Assembly: GCA_026770705.1 (NCBI GenBank)
Contig: JANJGN010000018.1
Coordinates: 26,970,001 to 27,034,000, forward strand
Direction: 5' to 3'
Length of the DNA: 64,000 nucleotides
Source of the DNA: Isurus oxyrinchus
Taxonomy: Eukaryota
Part shown: positions 1 through 56,254 of the stretch, piece by piece
Numbering within the stretch: position 1 is the first letter of the stretch
Layout: the number at the start of each line of letters is the position of its first letter
Notes under the pieces: generated by a model
The model's database searches: none
Told to the model about the DNA's origin: nothing
The model's input: the letters and a program-made list of their open reading frames with translations, nothing else
Made by a program: the position numbers and the translations under genes

Positions 1-524
1 GAGTGTGTGCGCGCGCCCGCTGGAGAGAGAGAGAGAGAGACAAGGAGGGAGTGTGTGCGCGCGCCCGCTGGAGAGAGAGAGAGACAAGGAGGGAGTGTGT
101 GCGCGCGCCCGCTGGAGAGAGAGAGAGAGAGACAAGGAGGGAGTGTGTGCGCGCGCCCGCTGGAGAGAGAGAGAGAGAGACAAGGAGGGAGTGTGTGCGC
201 GCGCCCGCTGGAGAGAGAGAGAGACAAGGAGGGAGTGTGTGCGCGCGCCCGCTGGAGAGAGAGAGAGACAAGGAGGGAGTGTGTGCGCGCGCCCGCTGGA
301 GAGAGAGAGAGAGAGACAAGGAGGGAGTGTGTGCGCGCGCCCGCTGGAGAGAGAGAGAGACAAGGAGGGAGTGTGTGCGCGCGCCCGCTGGAGAGAGAGA
401 CAAGGAGGGAGTGTGTGCGCGCGCCCGCTGGAGAGAGAGAGAGAGAGAGAGACAAGGAGGGAGTGTGTGCGCACGCCTGCTGGAGAGAGAGAGAGACAAG
501 GAGGGAGTGTGTGCGCGCGCCCGC

Positions 525-555
<31 letters not shown>

Positions 556-840
556 AAGGAGGGAGTGTGTGCGCGCGCCCGCTGGAGAGAGAGAGAGACA
601 AGGAGGGAGTGTGTGCGCGCGCCCGCTGGAGGGAGAGAGAGAGAGAGAGACAAGGAGGGAGTGTGTGCGCGCGCCCGCTGGAGGGAGAGAGAGGAGAGAC
701 AAGGAGGGAGTGTGTGCGCGCGCCCGCTGGAGAGAGAGAGAGACAAGGAGGGAGTGTGTGCGCGCGCCCGCTGGAGGGAGAGAGAGACAAGGAGGGAGTG
801 TGTGCGCGCGCCCGCTGGAGAGAGAGACAAGGAGGGAGTG
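1..840. repeat. Minisatellite of about 18 units (~40-58 bp): GAGTGTGTGCGCGCGCCCGCTG(GA)nCAAGGAGG, truncated by the window start
   Basis: Directly visible tandem units with variable (GA)n length; the three overlapping ORFs are translations of the repeat. Confidence 0.97.
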
Positions 841-6066: not shown

Positions 6067-8763
6067 TGCATTTAAGAAGAAACTAGGTAATGCATGAGGG
6101 GAGAAAGTAATAGAAGGCTATCTTGATGGGGTTAGAAGAAGGAGGCACATGGGAAGCATATACACCAGCATAGTCCTGTTAGGCTGAATGTTCAGTTGCT
6201 GCACTGTAAGATCGATGTACTATGTGAGATTTGTTTGCAATTCTCCCAGAAGGCTGAAACCACACATTGTCGTTGGTCTATGTGGGGGAGGCTGGAGAAC
6301 CACATTTGGGGTCATAGAAAATGGGTAGCCATTTACCCTGAAACTATTTTGTCACAGGAATTCAGAGTTGCTAAAAGCACAGTCCATCTTCGGCACTGAA
6401 CCAAACTGACCAGAAAATCCTAGGACTCTACCCCTGATCGGTGTGCCATTAACTGAGCTCAGCTAGAGTGGTAAGAGGAGCACAGTGTGGTTGGGAGTAG
6501 GGTGGAAATCAGCCCATGGTTCCTGCTCCCGAGTAGTGCAAAGTGTGTACATGTGTGTTCATCTGCATGGACTTAAACAATCTTAGAATTTGATCCTTGC
6601 TGGCAAGTACTACATTTATTGTGTATTCCCATTTATTCTCTGAAGGTGCTGCTGGGCCACTTTTTTGAAGTACTGTGGATGGTTTTGATTCAACTGAATG
6701 GCTTCTGAGCACAGTTAAAAGTCAACCATGTTGATTTGGGATTGGAGTCACACATACGGTATGATCTAGGTAAGTAGGGCAGGTTTCCTTCCCCAAAGGA
6801 CATTCATGAACCAGCTAGCTACTTTCCACAATCTCTCAGCTTTGTGGTCACTCCTACTGATAGCAGCTTTTAATTTACTGATTTCTTTAAAAACTGAATT
6901 CACATTCACAAACCACCACAGTATGATTTAAACACAAATTGTCAGGATTGTTGGCCCAGGCCTCTGGAGAACTAATTCAGTTAAAAAACACCCATTACAC
7001 TATTGCAATGTTTAGGATAGGGCTGGGCTCAGCTGGGATACCCCAAACACTCACTGACACATGAATCATCCTGGTTGACTGATGCCCACCAATAAGTCTG
7101 CATAAACAGCTGTGGTATTTTCATGTCCACTGATGCCTAGCCTGTCTCCAAAATAAACCTTGTGATTTTTTTTCTTCAATATGAAACATGATGGGGTCAT
7201 TACAAGAGTGAGGGAAATGAAAACAACTAATACAGAGAAATGAAAACACTTTCTCCCCCACCTCACCTCTCATTAAGGTTCCCAGAATCAATAATTATAC
7301 CATCAGTTTGCAAATACACTTCTGTCTGAACCTAATGAGATTAATGCAACTGTACAAGTATAAAAGGAGATCTGCAAGTCAACTAATACATACCAATTAC
7401 TGATAGAGTTTAAGAGGAAGTGTTCGGACCTGATTGTTGAACATCTTCAGCCTTTAAAATGCATGAGAGTTCAGGTTACTTTTCCAACAAAAAATATTCA
7501 GCAAAAAATGTTAGGATGTTCAACAGCAGCAAATGCGACTTTATAAGTGTTATTATCTTCTTGCATACAGGTTCTTGAACCAGGCTGTCAGAGTTACAGA
7601 GCTCACACTCCCATCCGCAAATGTTGTGTGCAGGGGTAGAGTGCACAAATCTTTTATAACGGGGCAATCTATCTGTGCAGGGGTACATGCTACATAAACC
7701 CTTTAGAAGGTGACAATTTATTTGTACAGGAGCACAATGCCATGCGAACCTTTTATATTTGAGATCTATCTACACAGAGATACAGTGCCAAAACAAGAGT
7801 GTGAACAGTGTTTCTTCTGACATGGTTTTCTTTGGCTATCAGTCGAGTGGAGGCAGAGACAGGACTAATGGAGTGTTGCAAAAAGGTCAAAGAAAGGAGG
7901 GAGCGCCCTGAGGTCAAGTGACATACTCTGAACCGGTGGCCAACTCTGGGAGCTGGGGGGTGGGCAGCAGGCCTGGAGATGGGGAAATGAAGTGTGGTAC
8001 AGTGAGAGGAGCAGACTGAGTAGTGCCAGGGATTGGCTCCATTTTGGGATAGTATACAGAGTAATTTCAAACGGACATGTGGTAAGTATATCAGGCTTAG
8101 GATGAAGGGGTGACATGGGACCTCTCTATCCCGAGGCTCTCCACTGCTGAGATTTCTCTCAGCTTGCCTGGCTCTGTTGTGCATTAATTGAGAGCTATGA
8201 TTACTCCCCTATTGATATATCATTGTCCTAGGAGGACAACAAGGGCAGCAGATACATGGGAACACCACCACCTGGAAGTTCCCTTCCACCGTTCCTTCAC
8301 TGTCGCTGGGTCAAAATCCTGGAACTCCATCCCTAACAGCACGAGGGGTGTACCTACACCACATGGATTGCAGATGTTCAAGAAGACAGCTCACCACCCC
8401 TTCTCAAGGGCAATTAGGGATGGGCAATAAACGCTGGCCCAGCTGGCGATGCCCACATCCCATGAATGAATAAAAAAAGGCAACTATCAGGATGGTAAAA
8501 GGTAAAGTAAATGGACCTTGGTCTTCTTACATCTCACAATTCTTATGTCCTATTGGCACAGAGGAAGAGATATATAGGGAGAGAGCCAGAAAAATGCTTC
8601 AGCCATTAGATGACTCAGATGATGGCTCTGCCCAGGGTTAGGCTTGCCCAGGGTCACCTGTGTGCAGACCAGCTCCACCCAGACCCAAGGTCTGTTTTGG
8701 CCAGCCTTAACAATTCTGACTTTTTTAAGACTAGCACAGTTATAAAGCAGACAGCTAGAATAC

Positions 8764-8880
8764 CTGATTGTCACTGAGTGTGGGTGTAGGTTGTTGTTCC
8801 CTGTTTGTGTTTTTTCTCCAAAAGGATTCAACAGTTAAATACCCTTGCATAGATATTTCATAAAGTGTCGTGCTGGCCAC
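8764..8880 (-). CDS. APOO: APOO/MIC26-like exon 7 (VASTTLYEISMQGYLTVESFWRKNTNREQQPTPTLSDNQ)
   Basis: ttatttttctcag|GTG...CAG|gtattc, 117 nt, phase 0/0; resembles APOO [24 protein letters not shown]. Confidence 0.88.
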
Positions 8881-9522: not shown

Positions 9523-10560
9523 TAATCCTCTCTCCCTGTCACTCCCCACACCCTTTAATACACCACCGAGTCTGATCCTCTCTCCCCGTCACTCCCCACA
9601 CGCCTTAATACTCCACCGAGTCTAATCCTCTCTCCCTGTCACTCCCCACACCTTTAATACTCCACCGAGTCTAATCCTCTCTCCCTGTCACTCCCCACAC
9701 CTTTAATACTCCACCGAGTCTAATCCTCTCTCCCCGTCACTCCCCACACCCTGTAATACTCCACCGAGTCTAATCCTCTCTCCCTGTCACTCCCCACACC
9801 CTGTAATACTCCACCGAGTCTAATCCTCTCCCTGTCACTCCCCACACCCTTTAATACTCCACCGAGTCTAACCCACTCTCCCCGTCACTCCCCACACCCT
9901 TTAATACTCCACCGAGTCTAATCCTCTCTCCCCGTCACTCCCCACACCCTTTAATACTCCACCGAGTCTAATCTCTCTCCCCGTCACTCCCCACACCCTT
10001 TAATACTCCACCGAGTCTAATCCTCTCTCCCCGTCACTCCCAACACCCTTTAATACTCAACCGAGTCTAATCCTCTCTCCCAACACCCTTTAATACTCCA
10101 CCGAGTCTAATCCTCTCTCCCTGTCACTCCCAACACCCTTTAATACTCCACCGAGTCTAATCCTCTCTCCCCATCAGCCTCACACCCTTTAATACTCCAC
10201 CAAGTCTAATCCTCTCTCCCCATCATTTCCCACACCCTTTAGACCATAAGACGTGGGAGCAGAAATCAGGCCATTCGGCCCATCGAGTCTGCTCCACCAT
10301 TCAATCATGGCTGATAAGTTTCTCAACCCCATTCTTCCGCCTTCTCCCCGTAACCTTTGATCCCCTTACCAATCAAGAACCTACCTTTAATACTCCACCG
10401 AGTCTAATCCTCTCTCCCCTTCACTCCCCACAGCCTTTAATACCCCGCTAAATTTAATCCCACTCTTCTCTTCACTCCCCACACCCTTTAATTTCCCACC
10501 CAGTCTAATACCACCCTCCAGTTTACTCCCCACAACCTTTAATATCCCACCCAGCCTAAT
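9523..10560. repeat. ~50-bp minisatellite (CTCTCTCCCCGTCACTCCCCACACCCTTTAATACTCCACCGAGTCTAATC), interrupted by a CR1 3'-end insertion at about 10241-10384
   Basis: About 14 conserved units, then degenerate units; the insertion is flanked by CCTTTA on both sides. Confidence 0.93.
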
Positions 10561-10639
10561 GCCACTCTAAGGGTGTTCTGGCTAATATTTATTTCTCAAC
10601 AAAGATAACGAAAACAGATTATCTGGTAGTACGTTATCA

Positions 10640-11262: not shown

Positions 11263-11354
11263 CTTTGCTGCTTCAATCGTTTCTTCAGGATAATATAAAG
11301 AGGCACAAGCTGCGACAAACCCACACGAATAAATCACTTTCCTTATACGGGACC
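11263..11354 (-). CDS. APOO: APOO/MIC26-like exon 6 (GSRIRKVIYSCGFVAACASLYYPEETIEAAK)
   Basis: tag|GG...AAG|gtaatt, 92 nt; ASLYYP motif as in APOO [23 protein letters not shown]. Confidence 0.95.
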
Positions 11355-14759: not shown

Positions 14760-14858
14760 CCCTTCCAGCGAGAAAAAGGCCTGTCACTCCAGCCAGTGCA
14801 ATGACTCCAGCACGTGGGTAGAATCCAGTTGGTGGGTTCTTCAGAAAGGTATATCCAT
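14760..14858 (-). CDS. APOO: APOO/MIC26-like exon 5 (DGYTFLKNPPTGFYPRAGVIALAGVTGLFLAGR, transmembrane hairpin start)
   Basis: tttggtag|AT...AGGG|gtagga, 99 nt, phase 1/1; not in ORF track; matches the APOO/APOOL YLxNxPxxFxPxxGVI motif. Confidence 0.95.
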
Positions 14859-16025: not shown

Positions 16026-16080
16026 CTTTACCGATCTGAACCATCTTTTCTACTTTAGGCTTCACAGTTGTATAAGCAGC
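16026..16080 (-). CDS. APOO: APOO/MIC26-like exon 4 (AAYTTVKPKVEKMVQIGK)
   Basis: tttctcctag|GCT...AAAG|gtaag, 55 nt, phase 0/1; resembles APOO ETYSQTKPKMQSLVQWG. Confidence 0.93.
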
Positions 16081-25234: not shown

Positions 25235-25595
25235 AATTTATTCTTCCAGGGGATGTGGGTGTCACTGACAAGACCAGCATCTGTTGCCCATCCTGAAATG
25301 CTCTTAAACTGAGAGGCTTGCTAGGCCATTTCAGAAGATGTGAGTCACATGTAGGCCAGACAGGGTAAAGATGGCAGATTTCCTTCCCTAAATGGCATTA
25401 GTGAACCAGATGGGTTTTTACAACAATTAGTGATAGTTGTCATGCTCACCATTACTGAGTCTAGCTCTTAGCTCTAAATTTATTAATTAAATTTAAACTT
25501 TACCGGCTGCCTTCATGGGATTTGAACCCATATACCCAGATTGTTAGCCTCTGGATTACTAGTCCAGTGACATTACCACTATGCCACCATCTCCT
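25235..25595 (-). mobile_element. tRNA-derived SINE
   Basis: Minus-strand head GGTGGCATAGTGGTAATGTCACTGGACTAGTAATCCAG...GGGTTCAAATCCC and LINE-type tail; related copies at about 6600-7005(-), 44890-45225(+), 49440-49690(-). Confidence 0.8.
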
Positions 25596-25937: not shown

Positions 25938-26057
25938 CTGGAGCCCAGTGGTATATGGTCCAGCTAATTTTCGGAGCTCAGAGATCCTCTCTTCCAGCAG
26001 GCTTGGCTTTGCCTCCACAAATCGATAATTTTCAGCCGGGGTCGTATAAAGTGACAG
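25938..26057 (-). CDS. APOO: APOO/MIC26-like exon 3 (LSLYTTPAENYRFVEAKPSLLEERISELRKLAGPYTTGLQ)
   Basis: ttgcag|CTG...CAG|gtattg, 120 nt, phase 0/0; resembles APOO [40 protein letters not shown]. Confidence 0.95.
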
Positions 26058-28393: not shown

Positions 28394-28495
28394 TTGGTCA
28401 ATCTTGAGAAGTGCTTTCTCTTGTTTGTCACTCTGTGCAAAGACTGGCACTGAAAGCAGAGCCAGGCTTCCGCGGGATGCCACCAGTCCAACAAC
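28394..28495 (-). CDS. APOO: APOO/MIC26-like exon 2 (VVGLVASRGSLALLSVPVFAQSDKQEKALLKIDQ, targeting-peptide-like)
   Basis: ttttcccttgcag|GTT...CAA|gtaaat, 102 nt, phase 0/0; resembles APOO ..ASLSLLTFKVYA..VKVDE. Confidence 0.88.
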
Positions 28496-29094: not shown

Positions 29095-32000
29095 CATATC
29101 ACCATACTGTAACTATATATTGGTGCATCACTCTCTCACCATACTGTATCTATATATTGACGTATCACTCTCTCACCACACTGTAATTATATATTGACGT
29201 ATCACTCTCTCACCTTACTGTATCTGTATATTGATGTATCACTCTCTCACCACACTGTATCTGTATATTGACGTATCACTCTCTCACCATACTGTATCTA
29301 TATATTGACGGATCACTCTCTCACCACACTGTATTTGTATATTGATGTATCACTCTCTCACCACACTGTATCTATATATTGATGTATCACTCTCTCACCA
29401 CACTGTATATATTGATGTATTACTCTCTCACCATACTGTATCTGTATATTGATGTATCACTCTCTCACCACACTGTATCTATATATTGATGTATCACTCT
29501 CTTACCATACTGTATCTATATATTGATGTATCACTCTCTCACCATACTGTACCTCTATATTGATGTAACAATCTCTCACCACACTGTATCTGTATATTGA
29601 TGTATCACTCTCTCACCACACTGTATCTGAATATTGATGTATCACTCTCTCACCATACTGTATCTATATATTGATGTATCACTCTCTCACCACGCTGTAT
29701 CTCTATATTGATGTATCACTCTCTCACCATACTGTATGTCTATATTGATGTATCACTCTCTCACCACACTGTATCTATATATTGATGTATCACTCTCTCA
29801 CCATACTGTATCTGTACATTGATGTATCATTCTCTCACCACACTGTATATATTCATGTATCACTCTCTCACCACACTGTATCTGTACATTGATGTATCAC
29901 TCTCTCACCTTACTGTATGTATATATTGATGTATCACTCTCTCACCACACTGTATCTGTATATTGATGTATCACTCTCTCACCACACTGTATCTGTACAT
30001 TGATGTATCACTCTCTCACCATACTGTATCTGTATATTGATGTATCACTCTCTCACCTTACTGTATGTATATATTCATGTATCACTCTCTCACCACACTG
30101 TATCTGTACATTGATGTATCACTCTCTCACCTTACTGTATTTATATATTGATGTATCACTCTCTCACCACACCGAATCTGTATACTGATGTATCACTCGC
30201 TCACCACACTGTATCTGTATATTAATGTATCACTCTCTCACCATATTGTATCTGTACATTGATGTATCACTCTCTCACCATACTGTATCCGTACATTGAT
30301 GTATCACTCTCACCACACTGTATCTATATATTGATGTATCACTCTCTCACCATACTGTATCTATATATTGATGTATCACTCTCTCACCATACTGTATCTG
30401 TATATTGATGTATCACTCTCTCACCACACTGTATCTATATATTGATGTATCACTCTCTTACCACACTGTATCTGTACATTGATGTATCACTCTCTCACCT
30501 TACTGTATGTATATATTGATGTATCACTCTCTCACCACACTGTATCTGTACATTGATGTATCACTCTCTCACCTTACTGTATGTATATATTGATGTATCA
30601 CTCTCTCACCACACTGTATCTGTATATTGATGTATCACTCTCTCACCACACTGTATCTGTACATTGATGTATCACTCTCTCACCATACTGTATCTGTATA
30701 TTGATGTATCACTCTCTCACCACACCGAATCTGTATGCTGATGTATCACTCGCTCACCACACTGTATCTGTATATTAATGTATCACTCTCTCACCACATT
30801 GTATCTGTACATTGATGTATCACTGTCTCACCATACTGTATCCGTACATTGATGTATCACTCTCACTACACTGTATCTATATATTGATGTATCACTCTCT
30901 CACCATACTGTATCTATATATTGATGTATCACTCTCTCACCATACTGTAACTCTATATTGATGTATCACTCTCTCACCACACTGTATCTGTACATTGATG
31001 TATCACTCTCTCACCACACTGTATGTATATATTGATGTATCACTCTCTTACCATACTGTATCTATATATTGATGTATCACTCTCTCACCATACTGTATCT
31101 CTATATTGCTGTATCAATCTCTCACCACACTATCTGTATATTGATGTATCACTCTCTCACCACACTGTATCTGTACATTGACGTATCACTCTCTCACCAT
31201 ACTGTATCTATATATTGATGTATCACTCTCTCACCACACTATCTGTATATTGACGTATCACTCTCTCACCATACTGTATCTCTACATTGACGTATCACTC
31301 TCTCACCATACAGTATCTGTACATTGATGTATCACTCTCTCACCACACTGTATCAGTATATTGATGTATCACTCTCTCACCAAAATATATCTGTATATTG
31401 ACGTATCACTCTCTCACCACACTGTATCTGTACATTGACGTATCACTCTCTCACCACACTGTATCTGTATATTGATGTATCACTCTCTCACCACACTGTA
31501 TCTATATATTGATGTATCACTCTCTCACCATACTGTATCTCTATATTGATGTATCACTCTCTCACCATACTGTATCTCTATATTGATGTATCACTCTCTC
31601 AACACACTGTATCTGTACATTGATGTATCACTCTCTCACCATACTGTATCTATATATTGATGTATCACTCTCTCACCATAGTGTATCTGTATATTGATGT
31701 ATCACTCACCACACTGTATGTGTACAATGACGTATCACTCTCTCACCACACTGTATCTGTATATTGATGTATCACTCTCTCACCACACTGTATCTATATA
31801 TTGATGTATCACTCTCTCACCATACTGTATCTCTATATTGATGTATCACTCTCTCACCATACTGTATCTCTATATTGATGTATCACTCTCTCACCACACT
31901 ATCTGTATATTGACGTATCACTCTCTCACCATACTGTATCTCTACATTGACGTATCACTCTCTCACCATACAGTATCTGTACATTGACGTATCACTCTCT

Positions 32001-34245
32001 CACCACACTGTATCAGTATATTGATGTATCACTCTCTCACCAAAATATATCTGTATATTGACGTATCACTCTCTCACCACACTGTATCTGTACATTGACG
32101 TATCACTCCCTCACCATACTGTATCTCTATATTGATGTATCACTCTCTCACCACACTGTATTTATATATTGATGTATCACTCTCTCACCACACTGTATAT
32201 ATTGATGTATCACTCTTTCACCATACTGTATCTGTACATTGATGTATCACCCTCTCACCACACTGTATCTGTACATTGATGTATCACTCTCTCACCACAC
32301 TGTATACATTGATGTATCACTCTCTCACCACATTGTATCTGTACATTGATGTATCACTCACAACACTGTATCTGTACATTGATGTATCACTCTCTCACCA
32401 TACTGTATCTATATATTGATGAATCACTCTGTCACCACACTGTATCTGTACATTGATGTATCACTCTCTCACCATACTGTATCTATATATTGATGTATCA
32501 CTCTCTCACCACACTGTATCTGGATATTGATGTACCACTCGCTCACCACACTGTATCTGTATATTAATGTATCACTCTCTGACCACATTGTATCCGTACA
32601 TTGATGTATCACTCTCTCACCACACTGTATCTATATATTGATGCATCACTCTCTCACCACACTGTATCTGTATATTGATGTATCACTCTCTCACCATACT
32701 GTATCTCTATATTGATGTATCACTCTCTCACCACACTGTATCTATATATTGATGTATCACTCTCTTACCACACTGTATCTGTACATTGATGTATCACTCT
32801 CTCACCAGACTGTATCTCTATATTGATGTATCACTCTCTTACCATACTGTATCTATATATTGATGTATCACTCTCTCACCATACTGTATCTCTATATTGA
32901 TGTATCACTCTCTCACCACACTGTATCTATATATTGATGTATCACTCTCTTATCATACTGTATCTGTACATTGATGTATCACTCTCTCACCACACTGTAT
33001 CTGTATATTGATGTATCACTCTCTCACCACACTGTATCTGTATATTGATGTATCACTCTTTTACCACACTGTATCTGTACATTGATGTATCACTCTCTCA
33101 CCACACTGTATCTATATATTGATGTATCACTCTCTCATCATACTATATCTATATATTGATGTATCACTCTCTCACCATACTGTTTCTCTATATTGATGTA
33201 TCACTCTCTCACCATAGTGTATCTCTATATTGATGTATCACTCTCTCACCATACTGCATCTCTATATTGATGTATCACTCTCTCATCATACTATATCTAT
33301 ATATTGATGTATCACTCTCTCACCATACTGTTTCTCTATATTGATGTATCACTCTCTCACCATAGTGTATCTCTATATTGATGTATCACTCTCTCACCAT
33401 ACTGCATCTCTATATTGATGTATCACTCTCTCACCATACTGTATCTCTATATTGATGTATCACTCTCTCACCATACTGTATCAGTATATTGATGTATCAC
33501 TCTCTCACCATACTGTATCTCTATATTGATGTATCACTCTCTCACCATACTGTATCTATATATTGATGTATCACTCTCTCACCATACTGTGTCTCTATAT
33601 TGATGTATCACTCTCTCACCATACTGTATCTATATATTGAGGTATCACTCTCTCACCATACTGTATCTATATATTGATGTATCACTCTCTCACCACACTG
33701 TATCTGAATATTGATGTATCACTCTCTCACCATACTGTATCTATATATTGATGTATCACTCTCTCACCACACTGTATCTCTATATTGATGTATCACTCTC
33801 TCACCATACTGTATCTATATATTGATGTATCACTCTCTCACCACACTGTATCTCTATATTGATGTATCACTCTCTCACCATACTGTATCTCTATATTGAT
33901 GTATCACTCTCACCACACTGTATCTGTACATTGATGTATCACTTTCTCACCATACTGTATCTATATATTGATGTATCACTCTCTCACCACACTGTATATA
34001 TTGATGTATCACTCACCACACTGTATCTCTATATTGATGTATCACTCACCACACTGTATCTGTATATTGATGTATCACTCTCTCACCACACTGTATCTAT
34101 ATATTGATGTATCACTCTCTCACCATACTGTATCTCTATATTGATGTATCACTCTCTCACCACACTGTATCTGTACATTGATGTATCACACTCTTACAAC
34201 ACTGTATCTATATATTGATGTATAACTCTCTCACCATAATGTATC
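29095..34245. repeat. 37-bp minisatellite, roughly 135-140 units (TGATGTATCACTCTCTCACCA(T/C)ACTGTATCTATATAT)
   Basis: Directly visible; fills most of APOO intron 1. Confidence 0.98.
34235..34237 (-). CDS. APOO: APOO/MIC26-like exon 1 coding part: initiator ATG only, followed by donor GTGAGA
   Basis: First ATG downstream of the promoter-like segment; cattATG|G gives A at -3 and G at +4 after splicing; phase 0 matches exon 2; inferred. Confidence 0.7.
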
Positions 34246-34254
34246 TTCTCTCTG

Positions 34255-34372
34255 TCCTCTGGCGATACGTTCTAAGCAGCAGTGAACTCTGGGATCTAAT
34301 CGACAGTGGCTGCCACGGGACCAATGACGAGAAAAAAAAGTCAAAATATCGGAAGTACTGACGGGAAGAGGC
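34255..34372 (-). promoter_or_regulatory. Putative APOO promoter/5'UTR island
   Basis: Short CpG-retaining unique segment with ETS/GABP core CGGAAGT (34350-34356), CCAAT (34321) and two TGACG half-sites. Confidence 0.6.
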
Positions 34373-34930
34373 TGAGAGAGAGAGAGAGAGAGTGTGTGAG
34401 ATTGAGAGTGTGATAGCAAGAGAGTCTGAGATTGAGAGAAAGTGTGGGATAGTGAGAGAGAGAGAGAGTGTGTTTGGGATAGAGTCTGTGGGATAGAGAG
34501 TGTGTGGGATAGAGAGTGTGTGTGATAGAGAGAGTGAGTGAAAGAAAAAGTGCAAAAGAAAGAGTGTGGGATACTGAGAGTGTAGGATAGAGAGAGTGTG
34601 AGTCAGAGAGCGAGTGGGGGAGTACGACAAGGAGAGAGGGGAGAGGGAAAGTGGAGGAACGGCTGAGAGTTGGTGAGAGAGGAGAGGGAAAGTGAGGAGA
34701 CAGGTTGAAAGGATGGCCAGTGGAGCAGACATGGAGAGAGAATGAGGGAGAGTGGAAAGGATGGATGAGAAAATGGTGTTAAAAGGCAGGGAGTGAGTCT
34801 GGAGCGGAGGGGTCGGGAGATGGGGAGGGGAGTGAGTGGGAGGGGTGGGGAGGGAAGGGAGAGAAGGGGAACGGAGAGAGGGAGGTGTTAGAGGGGAGGG
34901 GGCAGTGTGTGGAGGGGAGAGAGGGAGCAG
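34373..34930. repeat. Purine-rich (GA/GT) low-complexity tract
   Basis: Visible composition. Confidence 0.85.
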
Positions 34931-37330: not shown

Positions 37331-37739
37331 TGACATTTGGCAACTATCACCTTCTCAGGGGCAATTAGGAACGGGCAATAAATGTTGGCTTTAACTAATC
37401 AGTCACTTCCAAAGACCAATTGAAAAAACAAAAGTGGGGGGGGGGGTTAAAAAAAAGCTACAAACAGCAGCAAGAGAAAAGGAGGCCAGGATGAAGGACA
37501 GTGAAACCAAGACAGGAGGGAGACAAAATGAAGGGCAGGAGCAGAAAGACAATAGAGCCCCTTTGTACTGGGCAGACCGGGGAGCTGATCTCCCTGGGTA
37601 AGAAATGCCCAGAGAGTATAGGAGTTGGGGATCGGAAGTATTTGTGCAGTTTATTCGAGTAGAGAGTAGGAAATGAGATGTAATCCTTTGGAACAGAGAG
37701 GATTAGAGGATTAGACACTGGATCAGAGGGTGGCTCCTG

Positions 37740-38220
37740 TTCCAGGTGTTTCAAGGTGTTTTCGTTCAGCTCCGGCTCCACTTCCCGTTTCGCTTTCTCG
37801 CCGCCTCTGGGCTCCGGGTTTCGGCTGAGCCGATGGTCGGGGTTGGTTGGTCTTGGCTTGTCCGGGCAATGCTGCAGCTCCGGGGCTCTCAGTCTCCGCA
37901 GGAGCAGGAGCAGGAGCAGGAGCCGGCGCGGGCTCCGGGCTCGGGTTCGGGTTCGGGCACGGGCTCTCCCCATGCAGACTGGATGGGGAACCTGCCGCAT
38001 TCGCTCAGCGCCCTGCCCCTGGCCAATCTGGCCGTACCAGGTAAGACGGGAACCAGGCCCGGCGGGTGGGTGGGGGTGGGTTAGAGTTCGCCGCTGGACG
38101 CACTGGGCACTGGGATCTGGGGTCTGGTCTCCATTGCCGCCTGGCCTGGGGACCTGCCCGGAAATTGGGAGGTGTCCGGAATTTGGGATGGGGGCTCAGG
38201 TTTGGGTCTGGGATCGCCAA
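37740..38220 (+). promoter_or_regulatory. CpG island over PLCXD2-like exon 1
   Basis: High GC and CpG density relative to flanks; CACTTCCCG ETS-like motif near 37780. Confidence 0.75.
37869..38040 (+). CDS. PLCXD2: PI-PLC X domain-containing protein 2-like, exon 1
   Basis: MLQLRG...HADWMGNLPHSLSALPLANLAVPG matches the PLCXD ADWMxxLP..LxNLAIPG motif; donor CAG|gtaaga, phase 1; alternative in-frame ATG at 37833. Confidence 0.9.
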
Positions 38221-39407: not shown

Positions 39408-40390
39408 GTCAGCGCGGCGTGTTCACTGAACTCGGGGGGTGTGAGTGCCGCGTGTTCACTGAACTCGGGGGGTGTGAGCGCTGCGTGTTCGCTGAATCAC
39501 AGTGCAGAAGAGGCCCTTCAGCCCATCGAGACTGCACCAACACATGAGAAACACCTGACCTACCTACCTAATCCCATTTACCAGCACTTGGCCCATAGCC
39601 TTGAATGTTATGACGTGCCAAGTGCTCATCCAGGTACTTTTTAAAGGATGTGAGGCAACTCGCCTCCACCACCCTCCCAGGCAGCGCATTCCAGACCATC
39701 ACCACTCTCCGGGTAAAAAAGTTTTTCCTCACATCCCCCCCTAAACCTCCTGCCCCTCACCTTGAACTTATGTCTCCTTGTGACTGACCCTTCAACTAAA
39801 TGGAACAGCTGCTCCCTATCCACCCTGTGCATGCCCCTCATAATCTTGTACACCTCGATCAGGTCACTCCTCAGTCTTCTCTGCTCCAATGAAAACAACC
39901 CAAGTCTATCCAACCTCTCTTCATAACTTAAATGTTTCATCCCAGGCAACATCCTGGTGAATCTCCTCTGCACCCCCTCCAGTGCAATCACATCCTTCCT
40001 ATAATCTGGCGACCAGAACTGCACACAGTACTCCAGCTGTGGCCTCACCAAGGTTCTATACAATTCCAACATAACCTCCCTACTTTTGTAATCTATGCCT
40101 TGATTGATAAAGGCAAGTGTCCCATATGCCTTTTTCACCACCCCATTAACATGCCCCTCCACCTTCAGAGACCTATGGACACACACGCCAAGGTCCCTGT
40201 GTTCCTCAGAACTCCCTAGTGCACACTCAGGAGTGTGAGCGCTGTGCGTTCACTGAACTCGGGAGAGTGAGCCCCGCGTGTTTACTGAATTCGGGAGCAT
40301 AGGCACCGCGTGTTCACTGAACCTGGGAGTGTGAGCACTGCCTGTTCGCGGAAGCCATGAGTGTGAGCGCCATATCTTTGCTGAAAGCAG
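39408..40390. repeat. Degenerate ~33-bp tandem repeat (GTGTGAGCGCCGCGTGTTCACTGAACTCGGG) split by a CR1 insertion
   Basis: Units at 39408-39495 and 40222-40390. Confidence 0.75.
39495..40220 (-). mobile_element. Young 5'-truncated CR1 LINE
   Basis: ORF 39641-40186 LYRTLVRPQLEYCVQFWSP...; near-identical to 12072-12670. Confidence 0.93.
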
Positions 40391-42290: not shown

Positions 42291-43472
42291 TCACGACCTA
42301 AAGTTGTTGAATTCAATATTCAGACCGGAAGGCTGTAAGGTGCCTAGTCGGAAGATGAGGTGTTGTTCCTCCAGTTTGCGTTGGGCTTCACTGGAACAAT
42401 GCAGCAAGCCAAGGACAGACATGTGGGCAAGAGAGCAGGGTGGAGTGTTAAAATGGCAAGCGACAGGGAGGTTTGGGTCATTCTTGCGGACAGACCGCAG
42501 GTGTTCTGCAAAGCGGTCGCCCAGTTTACGTTTGGTCTCTCCAATGTAGAGGAGACCACATTGGGAGCAACGAATGCAGTAGACTAAGTTGGGGGAAATG
42601 CAAGTGAAATGCTGCTTCACTTGAAAGGAATGTTTGGGCCCTTGGACGGTGAGGAGAGAGGAAGTGAAGGGGCAGGTGTTGCATCTTTTGCGTGGGCATG
42701 GGGTGGTGCCATAGGAGGGGGTTGAGGAGTAGGGGGTGATGGAGGAGTGGACCAGGGTGTCCCGGAGGGAGCGATCCCTACGGAATGCCGATAAGGGGGG
42801 TGAAGGGAAGATGTGTTTGGTGGTGGCATCATGCTGGAGTTGGCGGAAATGGCGGAGGATGATCCTTTGAATGCGGAGGCTGGTGGGGTGATAAGTGAGG
42901 ACAAGGGGGACCCTATCATGTTTCTGGGAGGGAGGAGAAGGCGTGAGGGCGGATGCGCGGGAGATGGGCCGGACACGGTTGAGGGCCCTGTCAACGACCG
43001 TGGGTGGAAAACCTCGGTTAAGGAAGAAGGAGGACATGTCAGAGGAACCGTTTTTGAAGGTAGCATCATCGGAACAGATGCGACGAAGGCGAAGGAACTG
43101 GGAGAATGGGATGGAGTCCTTACAGGAAGCGGGGTGTGAGGAGCTGTAGTCGAGGTAGCTGTGGGAGTCGGTGGGTTTGTAATGGATATCGGTGGACAGT
43201 CTATCACCAGAGATTGAGACAGAGAGGTCAAGGAAGGGAAGGGAAGTGTCAGAGATGGACCACGTGAAAATGATGGAGGGGTGGAGATTGGAAGCAAAAT
43301 TAATAAATTTTTCCAAGTCCCGACGAGAGCATGAAGCGGCACCGAAGTAATCATCGATGTACCGGAGAAAAAGTTGTGGAAGGGGGCCGGAGTAGGACTG
43401 CAACAAGGAATGTTCCACATACCCCATAAAGAGACAGGCATAGCTGGGGCCCATGCGGGTACCCATAGCCAC
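42291..43472 (-). CDS. PLE ORF remnant: RT motifs B-E, thumb and GIY-YIG endonuclease (393 aa, no stops)
   Basis: AMGTRMGPSYA, RYIDD, LPFLD, NLVYCIRCSQCGLLYIGETKRKLGDRFAEH. Confidence 0.92.
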   Translation of the reverse strand: MAMGTRMGPSYACLFMGYVEHSLLQSYSGPLPQLFLRYIDDYFGAASCSRRDLEKFINFASNLHPSIIFTWSISDTSLPFLDLSVSISGDRLSTDIHYKPTDSHSYLDYSSSHPASCKDSIPFSQFLRLRRICSDDATFKNGSSDMSSFFLNRGFPPTVVDRALNRVRPISRASALTPSPPSQKHDRVPLVLTYHPTSLRIQRIILRHFRQLQHDATTKHIFPSPPLSAFRRDRSLRDTLVHSSITPYSSTPSYGTTPCPRKRCNTCPFTSSLLTVQGPKHSFQVKQHFTCISPNLVYCIRCSQCGLLYIGETKRKLGDRFAEHLRSVRKNDPNLPVACHFNTPPCSLAHMSVLGLLHCSSEAQRKLEEQHLIFRLGTLQPSGLNIEFNNFRS

Positions 43473-44319
43473 ACCTTTTATTTGGAGAAAGTGAGAGGAG
43501 TTGAAGGAGAAATTGTTTTTCTTTGTTTTTTTGTTTTTTTTTGTTTTAATACCAGGAATGGGTGGGTTGCCTTATGAGGAAAGGTTGGACAGACTAGGCT
43601 TATATCTGCTGGAGTTTAGAAGAGTAAGAGGTGACATGATTGAAACCTTTAAGATCCTGACAGGGTGAATGTGGAGAGGATGTTTCCTCTTGTGGAAGAA
43701 TCTAGAACTAGGGGTCACTGTTTAAAAATAAGGGGTCATTCATTTAAGACAGAGATGAGGAGAATTTTTTTCTCCAAGGGTTGTGAGTCTTTGGAACTCT
43801 GTTCCTGAAAAGGCGGTGGAAGCAGAAGCTTTAAATATTTTAAAGGCAGAGCTGGATAGATTCTTGATTAACAAGTGGGTGAAAGGTTATCGGGGGTAAG
43901 CAGGAATGTGGAGTTGAGGTTACGTTCAGATCAGCCATGATCTTATTAAATGGTGCAGCAGGCTCGAGGGGCAGAGTGGCCTACTCCTGCTCCTAGTTTG
44001 TATTTCTGTATGTGGCAAGCCAGACAGCCAATCAGAGGCGCCGAGCCCCTCTAGGTGGCTGGTGCCAGTGGCCATGTTGGGGGCTGCTGTTGACTTGCTG
44101 AGGGAAGCAGGCAGCTCCCCACAAGGACAGGAGGTGAAAGATGGTATAAAGTAGCTGTGGAAGCCAAGCCGAGGTACTGCTCAAGTCCTGGAGCTAGATG
44201 ACCCATCAAATTTCACAAAAAACACAGGTGGAGATTAAAAAATGTTTTTTAACCACTAACACACACCAGACTGGCTTCATCTCAAAAAAAGATTGAAAAT
44301 CCCATTCTGTCCCATGACA

Positions 44320-47637: not shown

Positions 47638-48851
47638 ATGGGGATAGTGTATTCCGCTGGTGGAACCTCCTCTGAAGAGGGAGAGAGGGGCAGGAGGGAG
47701 AGGAGACCAGGTGGGCATGGGACAGACCTTTAAGAGGAGAGGCACGGGCTCAGTTGGTGCAGGGCCAGCAGAGAGGCCAAAGCAGGAGGGCATGCCGAAG
47801 ATGCCACTACCCAATATCTACAGGCAGCGCTCCAATAACCTCCAGATGTCCGAGGCCCAGTGCTGCAGGAGGCTTCGCATCTCCAGGGACACAGTGACAG
47901 CAATTTATCACATGACATGTCCAGAAATCACCTCCAACTGCGTGGGCAGACACCCCTTGCTACTGGCTTTGAAGGTCATGGTGGCCCTCAACCTCTATGC
48001 CTCTGGTTCCTTTTAGGGCTCAGTGGGAGATCTGTGTGGCGTTTCTCAATCAGCTGCACACAGTTGTGTCAAGCTCATGACTAATGCTATCTTTAGACAC
48101 GACCGCATGTTCACCCACTTCTGGACAGATGAAGTGAGCCAGGCAGAGAGAGCACGAGGCTACACTGCGATGGCTGGGTTCCCCCACGTCCAGGGTGTAA
48201 TAGATGCACTCACGTGGCCATCAAGGCGTCAGCAGGTGAGCCGGGACCTTTCGTAAACAGAAAGGGCTTCCACTCAATGAATGTTCAAATTGTCTGTGAC
48301 CAAAGCACGTGGAGTCTCCAAGTTAGTGCCCGTTACCCTGAGATCTCACACGATGCTTACATCTTGTGGCAGTCACAGGTACCAAGGCTGTTCATGGCTC
48401 CTCCATGAGTGGATGGATGGCTCCTGGGTGACAAGGGCTATCCCTTGAAGAGGTGGCTGATGGCCCCACTCCATCACCCAAGAACTGAGGCCAAAGAGAG
48501 ATACAACAGGAGTCATGCCTCTACAAGGGCGGTGGTGGAGAGGACCATTGGACTGCTGAAGATGCGCTTCAGATGCCTGGAGCGGTCAGTGGGAGCTTTG
48601 CATTATCCTCCAGAGTGTTTCTCCCTCATAGTTATTGCATGCTGTGCCCAGAACAACCTGATTCTGGCAAGGGGGCCCCACTGGAGGCTGAGGAAAGCGA
48701 GGCAGCTCCACAGGCCATGGAGGATGACACAAGTGATGGCTCAGAGGAAGAGCCTGGGGAGGCGCAAGGTGAGGACCTCGAGGCAGAGGACAGGAACCTT
48801 CATGGAGGCAGGGACACCAGGGATGCTTTGATCCAGCAAACCTTCTGCTAG
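47638..48851 (+). pseudogene. Harbinger (HARBI1-like) DDE transposase, frameshifted
   Basis: [69 protein letters not shown] across several frames with stops. Confidence 0.92.
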
Positions 48852-53245: not shown

Positions 53246-54209
53246 TGATCTATAATATTAAACAATGGAGTTTGAAGTACTGGAAGCCTATCTGATGATA
53301 TCTCCATTGCACTTCACTTTTATGACCATATTTTCATATTAACCCTGACTTTCTAACTGAAGGCATTATCTGAAAATTCCTTAAAGTTGATCTTGCAGCA
53401 GCTGGCAGTTATACTGCAGTACGTGTGAAGCCCAGGGGGCGTAGCAGATCTCCCTCCTTGGAATGATGGGGCACTTTTTCTTGTACCTGGGCCATTTACC
53501 TTGTGTGGTGAAACAGGCCTGAATCCCTTTTACCTCAAAGCCCCAAAAGGACAATCAGAGAGACTGCACTGGTGACCCCGAACCCCTGTAGGCAGGAGCA
53601 CAGCTCAGACAATCAGGGTAAAGATGCTACAGATCCATCTGTCACTCACGCTGCTACCTGTTGAGCTGGGTCTTAGGCACGGTCTCCATGGATGCGATGG
53701 TCATACTGGATATTTTCTGGAATGGGCTTGATGGGCCAAATGGCCGCCTTCTGTAACTGTTTAATGATATGGCAAGGCCAAGAGTGCGGTATCACTGAAC
53801 TGATACAGCAGAGGACAGAAATTGGCACGATCCTTCACTCCTGTGGACAATTCCTGGTCACACTTTTCTGTTTGCTATTGTAAATTGCTATGTCAACGTT
53901 TTCCATTCAGTTTTTCCATGTCAATGGTCACAATGCTCTGTCCACTGGGGGCACTGTGGAGCACGTTTCTGCCATGGCCCACCTGCGCCTCCACTTTGCG
54001 TTTCTCTGGGGCTGTTGTCAGCAGGTGGTGGTGGGGCCGGGGTGGGGGGTGGGGGTGGGGGGGGGGGGGGGGGTGGGGCGGGGGTTTCTCCTGCTTGTCA
54101 GCCATAAGAAGCTAACCAGAAGCAAGTACAAACGTTTAGGTCAAGGGTAAGTGAAGTGTTTTGAGAATAGTAACCAAACTTCTCCGGCTTTCCCATGTTT
54201 TCTTTCCAG

Positions 54210-54673
54210 GATCTCACGACTCCTTCAGCTTCTGGATGGACGAAAAATCTCCCGTTGGCCCAGACCAACCCGTTGTCGTAAGGCACCTGGCCGGAATTTT
54301 CCAATCTTTCTGGAAGAAGATGATGAAGAAATGGTCAGTGACACAAAGCTTGACTTTTCGGGAGCAGCTGGAGGCAGGCATTCGCTATTTTGATCTCCGA
54401 GTTTCCACCAAACCCGGAGAAGATGACGAGCTTTATTTCATCCATGGCTTGTTTGGCAGCAAAGTTTATGACGGTCTGATAGAAATTAACAATTTCTTGA
54501 AAGCTCATACCAAAGAGGTGATCTTTCTGGATTTCAATCATTACTATGAAATGCAAGACTCAAACCATGAATACCTTATCCAAATGCTTAAAAAGACCTT
54601 TGGATCAAAACTCTGCAGAGCCAATATAGTTGAGGAAATCACACTCCAGTATTTATGGGAACACAAATACCAG
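54210..54673 (+). CDS. PLCXD2: PI-PLC X domain-containing protein 2-like, exon 2
   Basis: tttccag|GA TCT CAC GAC...TAC CAG|gttagt, 464 nt; GSHDS, EQLEAGIRYFDLRVS, YFIHGLFG catalytic His motifs; DEKSPVGPDQ and KKWSVTQ favour PLCXD2 over PLCXD3. Confidence 0.96.
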
Positions 54674-56254
54674 GTTAGTGCCTCCAGGTTCCATTCCGAA
54701 CCAATATCATATCAAAGCTACAGAGATTGCTGTAGGTTATGTAGCAACATACCAGTGCAGCAAGGTAAAAACACACAGTAATGCAACATAGTGACAGGCT
54801 ACAGTCTAATGTCGTCTCATGGATGCTTTAGAAGGTGTTTCTCCAAAGTTGCCTGTGAACAATGTATTTGTGTGTGAGTGTATATTTTCTTACCCGTGGA
54901 GTGAGAAATTCGATTTAAAATAACCCGCCAGCAAAGGCTTTTCACCGAAAAGGGAAAGGTTAGTTTATTTCTACACCCTGACTTTGGAGGTTTTTTAATA
55001 TTCCTTCATGGGATGTGGGCATCACTGGCTGGGCCAGCATTTTCATTGCCCATCCCTAATTGCCCCCGAGAAGATCGGTGGTGAGCTGCCTTCTTGAACC
55101 GCTGCAGTCCATGTGGTGTAGATACACCCACAGTGCTGTTAGGGAGGGAGTTCCAGGATTTTGACCCAGTGACAGTGAAGGAACGGTGATATATTTCTGA
55201 GTCAGGGTTGTGAGTGACTTGGAGGGGAACTTCCAGGTGGTGGTGTTCTCATGTGTCTGCTGTCCTTATCCTTCTAGGGGGTAGTGGTCGCACATTTAGA
55301 ATGTGCTGTCGAAGGATCCTTGATGAGGTGTTTAAGGGAAAAAATGATACCACTCATACAACCCGCATGCACAAAGATGAATTGCAGAGGAAGATAAAAA
55401 CAATACTTATAAAAATGTAATCAATTCAGTCTGTTGAGTTCAGTGCAAGCCTGATATTTTTGAAGTCGAGATGTGAATCTCAGTCGATGGAATCAGGTTG
55501 AGAAGGAGGAGAGTTGGTTTCTTATTTCTGTTCTGCACATGTAGCATTTCAGCTGCCTAGTTACTTTACTTTACAGTAGACCAGTAGCTGTGTTTCTGGA
55601 TGTCCCCCTTTGTCTCTCCTTCTTGCAAGCAGTTTTCCTTTCTGCTGCACCTAGGCTATTTCAAGATGGTTCTAGATGGATCTGTCTTGCATCAGGCTTG
55701 CCCAGCCTTTTCTAGCCAAGCTGGTCGCTGCTTCAAAATGCTGAATCATGTTCCAAATACAGTAAGCGGTAATCCCGTTTTGCAAGCTGAAATCTCCTTA
55801 CCGCCTGCATTAATCAAAAGGACAAAGGTTTTCTCACACTTTAAAGTTCTTATTAGTTAATGCCTTTGAAGGAAAGCCATCAAGTTAACGAGTATCCATT
55901 TACTCGTTTGGAACACACACTGGATTTCAAATGTCCTTTATTTATAAATGCCTGAGGATGTCTCTTCCTTGTTTGGCTGAAGTGGTTCCAGCCCAAATCT
56001 ACAAGGAGAAAGTGACCTGTTAACGTAACCTCGGAGTCCATTTTGGAAGCAGTCTTTAAACTCAGTCCAAGTTTCAAAAATGCAACCTTTACCAATTTTT
56101 AGAAAACATTTGCATGACTGCACATCGTTACAGTAGAAGTGACAAATTAATATAATAATCCACCAACATCGTAACATGATAGTAATGTGATGTAGTGGTG
56201 ATCGTGTAAATCATGATGATCATCACAATAGTGTTGTAACACAATAGTGTAGGC

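Follow-up and report, generated by a model that had tools for sequence, protein, structure and literature searches.

The first coding intron of a MIC26-like gene of Isurus oxyrinchus is filled to 89% (5,136 nt of the 5,739-nt intron, on the minus strand) by a minisatellite whose 37-bp unit is made of what is most probably the exon/intron junction of the gene itself. That is, many of its units repeat a start codon followed by a 5' splice site. Its translation was also matched by predicted proteins of two distantly related sharks. The explanation that we favour, with somewhat better than even confidence, is that the array is an old junction minisatellite which is still turning over and is spliced mainly at its first donor, with a minor leak to isoforms laden with uORFs. 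In what follows, the window means the whole 64-kb stretch of DNA that was analysed.

Identification of the gene containing the array

The start codon and seven further coding exons, which span 28495 to about 7410 (Table 1), matched the MIC26-like protein of Carcharodon carcharias (P0001) at 207 of 209 residues. The homologues carry PF09769 (Pfam ApoO), and the full-length homology to named MIC26-like proteins, together with the intact exons, places the gene in the ApoO/MIC26 family. Among the 206 homologues, the best 120 were proteins of cartilaginous and bony fish, many of them called 'apolipoprotein O, a', or were unnamed. The gene had been taken for APOO in the original prediction. The family was right, and the name is refined here, at the family level only, to the database names MIC26-like or 'apolipoprotein O, a' (apooa). 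Exon mapping against P0001 also showed that the acceptor of exon 2 had been placed correctly at 28495. Beyond the last coding exon, poly(A)-signal hexamers are found at 6874, 6637 and 6620. A gene encoding a PI-PLC-X domain lies on the plus strand, head to head with the MIC26-like gene.

Table 1. Features of the MIC26-like gene and its minisatellite (positions in the window)
Feature	Position	Strand	Basis or remarks
Unique part of the exon that bears the ATG (5' UTR)	34235..34371	-	7 CpG; presumed ETS-like core 34350-34356; presumed CCAAT-like box at 34319
Putative start codon, the entire coding part of its exon	34235..34237	-	A at -3, G at +4; sequence and shark/ray homologues
Most upstream 5' splice site, GTGAGA, putative major donor	34229..34234	-	GTRAG uniqueness; major use by F7 precedent
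37-bp minisatellite	29099..34246	-	TRF, unit parsing, block duplications
Coding exon 2, 102 nt, phase 0, common acceptor for all donors	28394..28495	-	Identical to residues 2-35 of P0001
Coding exon 3	25938..26057	-	P0001 match
Coding exon 4	16026..16080	-	P0001 match
Coding exon 5	14760..14858	-	P0001 match
Coding exon 6	11263..11354	-	P0001 match; weak Pfam ApoO match, E 0.1
Coding exon 7	8764..8880	-	P0001 match
Last coding exon, up to the stop codon	7410..7451	-	P0001 match

Putative start codon and first splice donor

We listed the N-termini of 34 named and two unnamed shark and ray proteins. Met directly precedes the exon-2 residue in 20 of the 34 named proteins (13 begin with M followed by the exon-2 residue, and 7 have extensions that end in M there). 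The rest comprise four proteins with M plus K or Q, one extension not ending in M, and nine with an internal or other start. Because Met stands before the exon-2 residue in these 20 proteins, the view that the first coding exon of elasmobranchs contributes ATG alone is supported. The M plus K/Q termini would be the product of tandem acceptors. As for the bony-fish homologues, many begin with M-x-K-V: the strict pattern M[YFHC]K[VA] fits 45 of 119 rows, and many others begin with MLKV.

Four ATG/GT[AG] sites (the slash marks the junction) occur outside the array body between 28.5 and 38.1 kb, and only the one at 34237 has a GTRAG donor. Since the homologues need an ATG-only exon and 34237 is the sole ATG/GTRAG site at or outside the edge of the array, we infer with some force that the first unit of the array spans the real exon-intron boundary, ATG/GTGAGA at 34235, and that the intron begins at 34234. 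An exon 1 ending in ATG, as had been proposed from the DNA, is backed by the shark and ray proteins.

The next ATG upstream of 34237 is at 34732, and about 490 nt of unique sequence between them are free of ATG. As many CpG as in the 137 nt of the ATG-bearing exon were found in 18 of 467 tiles; the ETS-like core and the CCAAT-like box upstream of the start codon are motifs whose identities we assume. A pyrimidine tract followed by AG, resembling an acceptor, ends at 34372. The ATG-bearing exon may therefore be the first exon or an internal exon of 137 nt.

Structure of the minisatellite

Tandem Repeats Finder (TRF) reported a tandem array at 29099-34246 with a period of 37, 140.4 copies, 89% matches and 1% indels, that is, minisatellite-size units arranged head to tail. 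The predicted amplification is therefore real, and its size is about 140-fold rather than about 135-fold. On the minus strand the array sets in with the sequence just 5' of the ATG at 34237-34235. Each unit has two parts: about 12 nt from the end of the exon, closing with ATG, GTG or AAG, and about 25 nt from the start of the intron, opening with a GT donor. TRF, the parsing of units from the ATG/GTGAGA junction, and the adjoining positions of the ATG and the intron start agree with the original prediction that the exon/intron junction itself is the repeat unit.

After the first junction 140 units were parsed, of which 125 were 37 nt, nine 33 nt and six 35 nt long. GT was present at +1/+2 in 136 of them, GTRAG in 131 and GTGAGA in 117, in line with the claim that nearly every unit carries a GTGAGA donor. 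The triplet at -3 to -1 was GTG in 69 units, ATG in 59, AAG in six and another triplet in six. In 50 units the nine nucleotides from -3 to +6 were the same as at the first junction. These values mean that the donor is reiterated in the units that follow the first one. The site G/GTRAG occurred in 128 units (54 of these have the ATG at the junction itself, 17 have one only further upstream and in frame, and 57 have neither), and its density was 25.1 per kb in the array versus 0.92 per kb across the remainder of the gene. Units of the GTG type had been expected to give a weak start or none. This does not hold throughout: of the 74 G/GTRAG units without a junction ATG, 17 carry an in-frame ATG shortly upstream, in most cases by five codons.

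Between 34237 and 29099 there are 104 ATGs. Half of them (52) are translated as MVRE-stop, as had been foreseen for unspliced ATG units, and the first is translated as MVRELYINI-stop. All 104 meet a stop within 39 codons, which rules out a protein-coding array. A structured non-coding RNA was also rejected, since an Rfam search of the array gave no match and all 100 shuffles folded more stably than its 5' region. Elsewhere in the window the only trace of the unit was one 16-mer with two mismatches. The window also holds at least three further minisatellites.

Matches to the repeat unit in other sharks

We compared the array with N-terminal extensions of named proteins, seven different ones in all (P0022 was omitted, its extension being that of P0137), using a score that sums over codons and tolerates frameshifts. 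Isoform X3 of Pristiophorus japonicus (P0138) begins with MSIYRYSM. Its last seven residues are the in-frame translation up to the donor in 24 of the 140 units, and the first junction of the window shares only M with it. Its score of 22.7 bits was reached by none of 500 shuffles, 393 hits elsewhere in the window and 1419 control peptides of the same length from 32 named homologues. Under a cruder best-codon score, two of 1000 shuffles reached the level of P0138. Isoform X1 of Heptranchias perlo (P0131) scored 29.6 bits (reached by 0/500 shuffles, 0/407 hits elsewhere in the window and 0/382 control peptides), and the match covers about two diverged units.

The stricter score gave no match to the array for the other five extensions, namely Heptranchias X2 and X3, Pristiophorus X1 and X2, and Narcine, whose scores were reached by 83, 213, 393, 194 and 297 of 500 shuffles, respectively. 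Two unnamed proteins did not match the array either, and a search of short N-terminal fragments from lamniform transcripts yielded no candidate. When the 93-aa stop-free frame of the opposite strand of the array was searched against a 50%-cluster library, nothing was found at 1e-10, and six weak unnamed matches appeared (E 7e-6 to 7e-4, 32-50% identity).

The P0138 match crosses the seam from the intron-derived half into the exon-derived half of the unit. Such a seam exists only after tandem duplication, and Pristiophorus should therefore have at least two tandem units with the same period. Pristiophorus and Heptranchias belong to Squalomorphii, and Carcharodon to Galeomorphii (NCBI taxonomy). 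Because the extensions of P0138 and P0131 match the unit in register with the junction, the array is probably older than a split among sharks more than 200 million years ago. In the portion of the dating preprint that bears on this point (10.64898/2026.02.13.705779), the hexanchiform split is put at about 278-288 Ma (HPD 233-344; Triassic in earlier studies), and 256 Ma is given for the ancestor of the other sharks and rays.

Coincidence was weighed as an alternative. By this account the unit is a member of a satellite family that is widespread in sharks, or it expanded recently in lamniforms while independent insertions or gene-model artefacts produced the matches elsewhere, and the true ATG exon lies at another place. 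We judge this to be improbable. Such arrays are common here, as the other minisatellites in the window attest. Moreover, the unique exon sequence (34420-34235) gave an unstable result against the Narcine extension: 0/100 shuffles reached the score at first, and later scores were reached by 13/500 shuffles and 57/628 background segments, and by 14/500 shuffles and 31/408 background hits. Nevertheless, the match in the other sharks agrees in gene, strand and register to the junction, and coincidence leaves this register unexplained. The unit is otherwise nearly absent from the 64 kb, and none of the other three ATG/GT[AG] sites is a good donor. A gene model, even if misplaced, presupposes that the repeat is present upstream of exon 2 in that genome.

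N-terminal forms number at least four in Heptranchias and three in Pristiophorus. In the predicted isoforms of both species, internal donors are used as far as the gene models go. These isoforms are computed gene models, for which short reads may be assigned to the wrong one of several nearly identical donors; this caveat weakens the use of internal donors more than the presence of the repeat.

Turnover and constraint

The 140 units fall into 77 types, and their mean identity to the consensus is 94%. Four duplicated runs of three to five identical units were found, compared with a mean of 0.10 in 300 shuffles of the unit order, and no shuffle reached a run of five. Block duplication in the array is therefore ongoing. 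The possibility of a neutral slippage product had been left open at the outset. Current turnover agrees with it, but a purely recent origin is weakened by the cross-species match.

If the array were instead a selected device, its copy number and its mix of ATG, GTG and AAG units would set the share of productive mRNA through donor competition, uORF repression and decay, giving a heritable or tissue-tunable rheostat on the dosage of the MIC26-like protein. We consider this unlikely on present evidence. The persistence of the unit in lineages more than 200 million years apart is in its favour, as are the several upstream contexts of predicted isoforms that end in M at the exon-2 junction (three in Heptranchias and two in Pristiophorus), and the two to four accessions for one protein in several sharks are compatible with varied UTRs. 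In humans, tandem-repeat length is often associated with splicing, according to the part of PMC10078293 consulted. On the other hand, donor positions (-1, +1, +2, +4 and +5) showed no extra conservation within the array relative to other positions: derived alleles per position averaged 1.2 and 1.6, respectively (p=0.25), a comparison that has little power under homogenisation. The two kinds of ATG tended to exclude each other in the 140 units (8 with both, 51 with the junction ATG only, 22 with the upstream one only, 59 with neither), but the tendency was non-significant (Fisher p=0.06), and compensation was not accepted. The predicted isoforms may also stem from the misplaced reads mentioned above, and human F7, described below, uses only its first site.

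Donor strength and consequences of downstream donors

In order to express donor strength, we simply counted matches to the donor consensus over 11 positions. The first donor has 5 of 11, which is at the bottom of the range of donors in the gene (5-9). Compared with it, 114 of the 136 GT sites of the array are equal, 19 exceed it by one (6 versus 5 of 11) and three are below. Among the better-matching donors are the second junction and a further two that lie within 220 nt. RNA structure that would hide the donors was ruled out, as the fold of the 5' region was the least stable when set against the 100 shuffles (z=+4.6). The donors are probably exposed in the RNA, as judged from the predicted folding.

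We then read the sequence of transcripts that would use donors 2-7. Use of any of them would turn the first ATG into a uORF of nine codons, and each of the six would be preceded by one to three short uORFs. An in-frame ATG is available to donors 3 and 4 alone: with donor 3 the N-terminus would be five residues longer, and with donor 4 the in-frame ATG would lie behind two uORFs. Donors 2, 5, 6 and 7 have none. This reading accords with the proposal that donors of ATG-type units would join exon 2 in frame while uORFs pile up upstream. Transcripts laden with uORFs in this way would be expected to undergo lower translation and nonsense-mediated decay.

The density of exposed donors also recalls a landing array for U1 snRNP, which was part of the original prediction. 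In that case the donor-like sites would act on transcription instead of splicing and shield the first intron, which is AT-rich, against premature termination or cleavage. The relevant part of PMC12211998 reports that a 5' splice site shields transcripts against Restrictor-mediated attenuation. The 25 G/GTRAG sites per kb of unstructured RNA would suit such a role, and the array contains 102 AATATA hexamers, which we take to be a weak variant of the poly(A) signal, and 37 TGTA. However, AATAAA and ATTAAA are both absent from the array, which leaves little to shield beyond what the array itself adds, a single promoter-proximal donor is the normal arrangement, and the donor bases are free of detectable constraint. 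We therefore regard this role as very improbable.

Comparison with known junction minisatellites

The closest known system is the 37-bp VNTR in intron 7 of human F7. As described in the portion of PMC1557585 used here, its first copy spans the exon-intron boundary, the donor is reiterated in 5-9 copies, and only the most upstream donor is used. The downstream sites are functional pseudo-donors, and stronger ones compete only if they have a perfect consensus. The shark array resembles it in the length of the unit and in the position of the first copy, a likeness that does not imply sequence homology. It differs in that the F7 repeat follows an internal exon, with no start codon in the unit, whereas the shark array has about 140 copies at an ATG exon, 59 of them with ATG, and is apparently conserved across shark orders. 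By analogy with F7, the first donor of the shark gene should dominate.

The same portion of PMC1557585 lists 25 pseudo-sites in intron 2 of IFI6 (6-16) and 15-20 repeats in intron 13 of CBS, with two pseudo-sites used besides the authentic donor. Reiterated donors are common to these and the shark gene, but the shark array has far more copies, the human ones are not described there with a start codon, and use of a downstream donor in the shark gene would alter the uORF content and the N-terminus. The junction minisatellites of LMNB2 (100-bp) and PDGF (81-bp), of which the authentic donor alone is reported there to be used, are likewise tandem repeats spanning a junction, with longer units and fewer copies than the shark array. 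In spl-TRs, as PMC10078293 defines them, tandem repeats lie near splice sites and their length tracks splicing. They share this location with the shark array, but their motifs are up to 20 bp instead of 37 bp and the evidence is a population association, whereas the shark array is known from one haplotype.

Proposed history of the array and its significance

We propose the following course of events. In an early shark, the last 12 nt or so of the ATG-only exon and the first 25 nt or so of the intron were probably duplicated in tandem, and the array would since have been retained and homogenised by unequal exchange or slippage. Splicing of the pre-mRNA would mostly take the first donor, the earliest to be encountered and one that matches the consensus as well as most others do, and the normal 209-aa protein would result. 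A minority of transcripts would use downstream donors and carry short uORFs in strong context. These transcripts would be poorly translated or degraded, or would yield proteins longer by a few residues at the N-terminus. On this view the array would for the most part be tolerated and would lower the MIC26-like output modestly at most.

Several points stand against this history. That the first donor dominates is an extrapolation from human minigenes, which have 5-9 units compared with 140 here. The 19 GT units that beat the first donor on consensus, together with the probable exposure of the donors, count against it, and the multiple N-terminal forms modelled in Heptranchias and Pristiophorus could reflect substantial downstream use. 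Persistence over 200 million years fits function better than tolerance, and such persistence is long for a minisatellite. In addition, five of the seven extensions lack a match to the array. A bolder reading, to which we give limited credence, is that 'start codon plus splice donor' cassettes have been kept for more than 200 million years, with many donors used in vivo and with unit number and type balancing productive mRNA, uORF-repressed mRNA and N-terminally extended isoforms.

In the open-access literature searched for an account of the shark array or of a donor repeat containing a start codon, only the F7 paper was directly relevant. This class of junction minisatellite is already known; what is new is the scale, the included start codon and the apparent age. 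The few human genes with such minisatellites have 5-25 copies, and the shark array is about sixfold the size of the largest one listed in the part of PMC1557585 used here.

With 136 near-equivalent donors spread over 5 kb, the array lends itself, as a natural experiment, to testing whether a 5' splice site is chosen by the first-come scanning rule. Of these donors 19 fit the consensus better than the first one does, and many can be told apart by unit variants in long reads. In practical terms, the array accounts for the numerous odd N-termini in shark gene models of the MIC26-like gene. If downstream donors are used, it would test whether repeat length tunes protein output through uORFs. If the cassette reading is true, sharks would possess an evolvable, repeat-encoded dial on a protein of the mitochondrial cristae.

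Features of the window around the MIC26-like gene

The features that surround or interrupt the MIC26-like gene are listed in the table below.

Positions of repeats, coding segments and mobile elements in the window
Feature	Position	Strand	Details
CpG-rich minisatellite	1-827		44-46-bp unit, at least 17.7 copies; extends past the window edge
Minisatellites	9523-10241 and 10383-10568		50-51-bp unit; MIC26-like intron between exons 6 and 7
tRNA match (Rfam)	25515-25586	-	weak, 31.2 bits; intron 3
PI-PLC-X-domain gene	37707-38084 and 54155-54781	+	Pfam PF00388
Two short arrays, related to each other	39411-39496 and 40225-40368		32-33-bp unit; first intron of the PI-PLC-X gene
Stop-free frame	42291-43571	-	426 aa; RT and GIY-YIG matches
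Transposase fragment	48409-48831	+	DDE_Tnp_4

The CpG-rich minisatellite has a CpG observed/expected ratio of about 1, and a GA microsatellite is embedded within it. The 50-51-bp minisatellites are located away from any exon-intron junction, and the two 32-33-bp arrays flank a LINE-like fragment. We take the stop-free frame to be a Penelope-like retroelement, the end of which recurs as several shorter copies elsewhere in the window; the transposase fragment is presumably Harbinger-like. The tRNA match is probably the head of a tRNA-derived SINE.

The PI-PLC-X-domain gene, which we assume to be PLCXD2-like, and the MIC26-like gene form a head-to-head pair. The first exon of the PI-PLC-X-domain gene (donor at ~38040) is contained in a CpG island at ~37.6-38.2 kb. 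It is therefore possible that the two genes have a common promoter and that the MIC26-like gene possesses a non-coding exon further upstream.

Variation in the MIC26-like gene and its homologues

In six units of the 37-bp array, ATG before the donor is replaced by AAG (intron starts 30572, 30498, 30130, 30056, 29908 and 29213, minus strand). These units carry a better donor than the ATG-type units, and their AAG would encode Lys. The first exon of the bony-fish homologues also ends in Lys (M-x-K), and this match may be a coincidence.

At residue 88 (exon 4, 16026-16080, minus strand) the gene in the window has Met, versus Thr in Carcharodon and Cetorhinus; this Met codon is its first internal in-frame ATG.

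The models of the homologous proteins from the stingray group and Heterodontus (P0021, P0139-P0144 and P0002) have as their first residue an internal Met, encoded by exon 2 or a later exon. Thus, the exon that contributes Met alone may have been lost or bypassed in these lineages.
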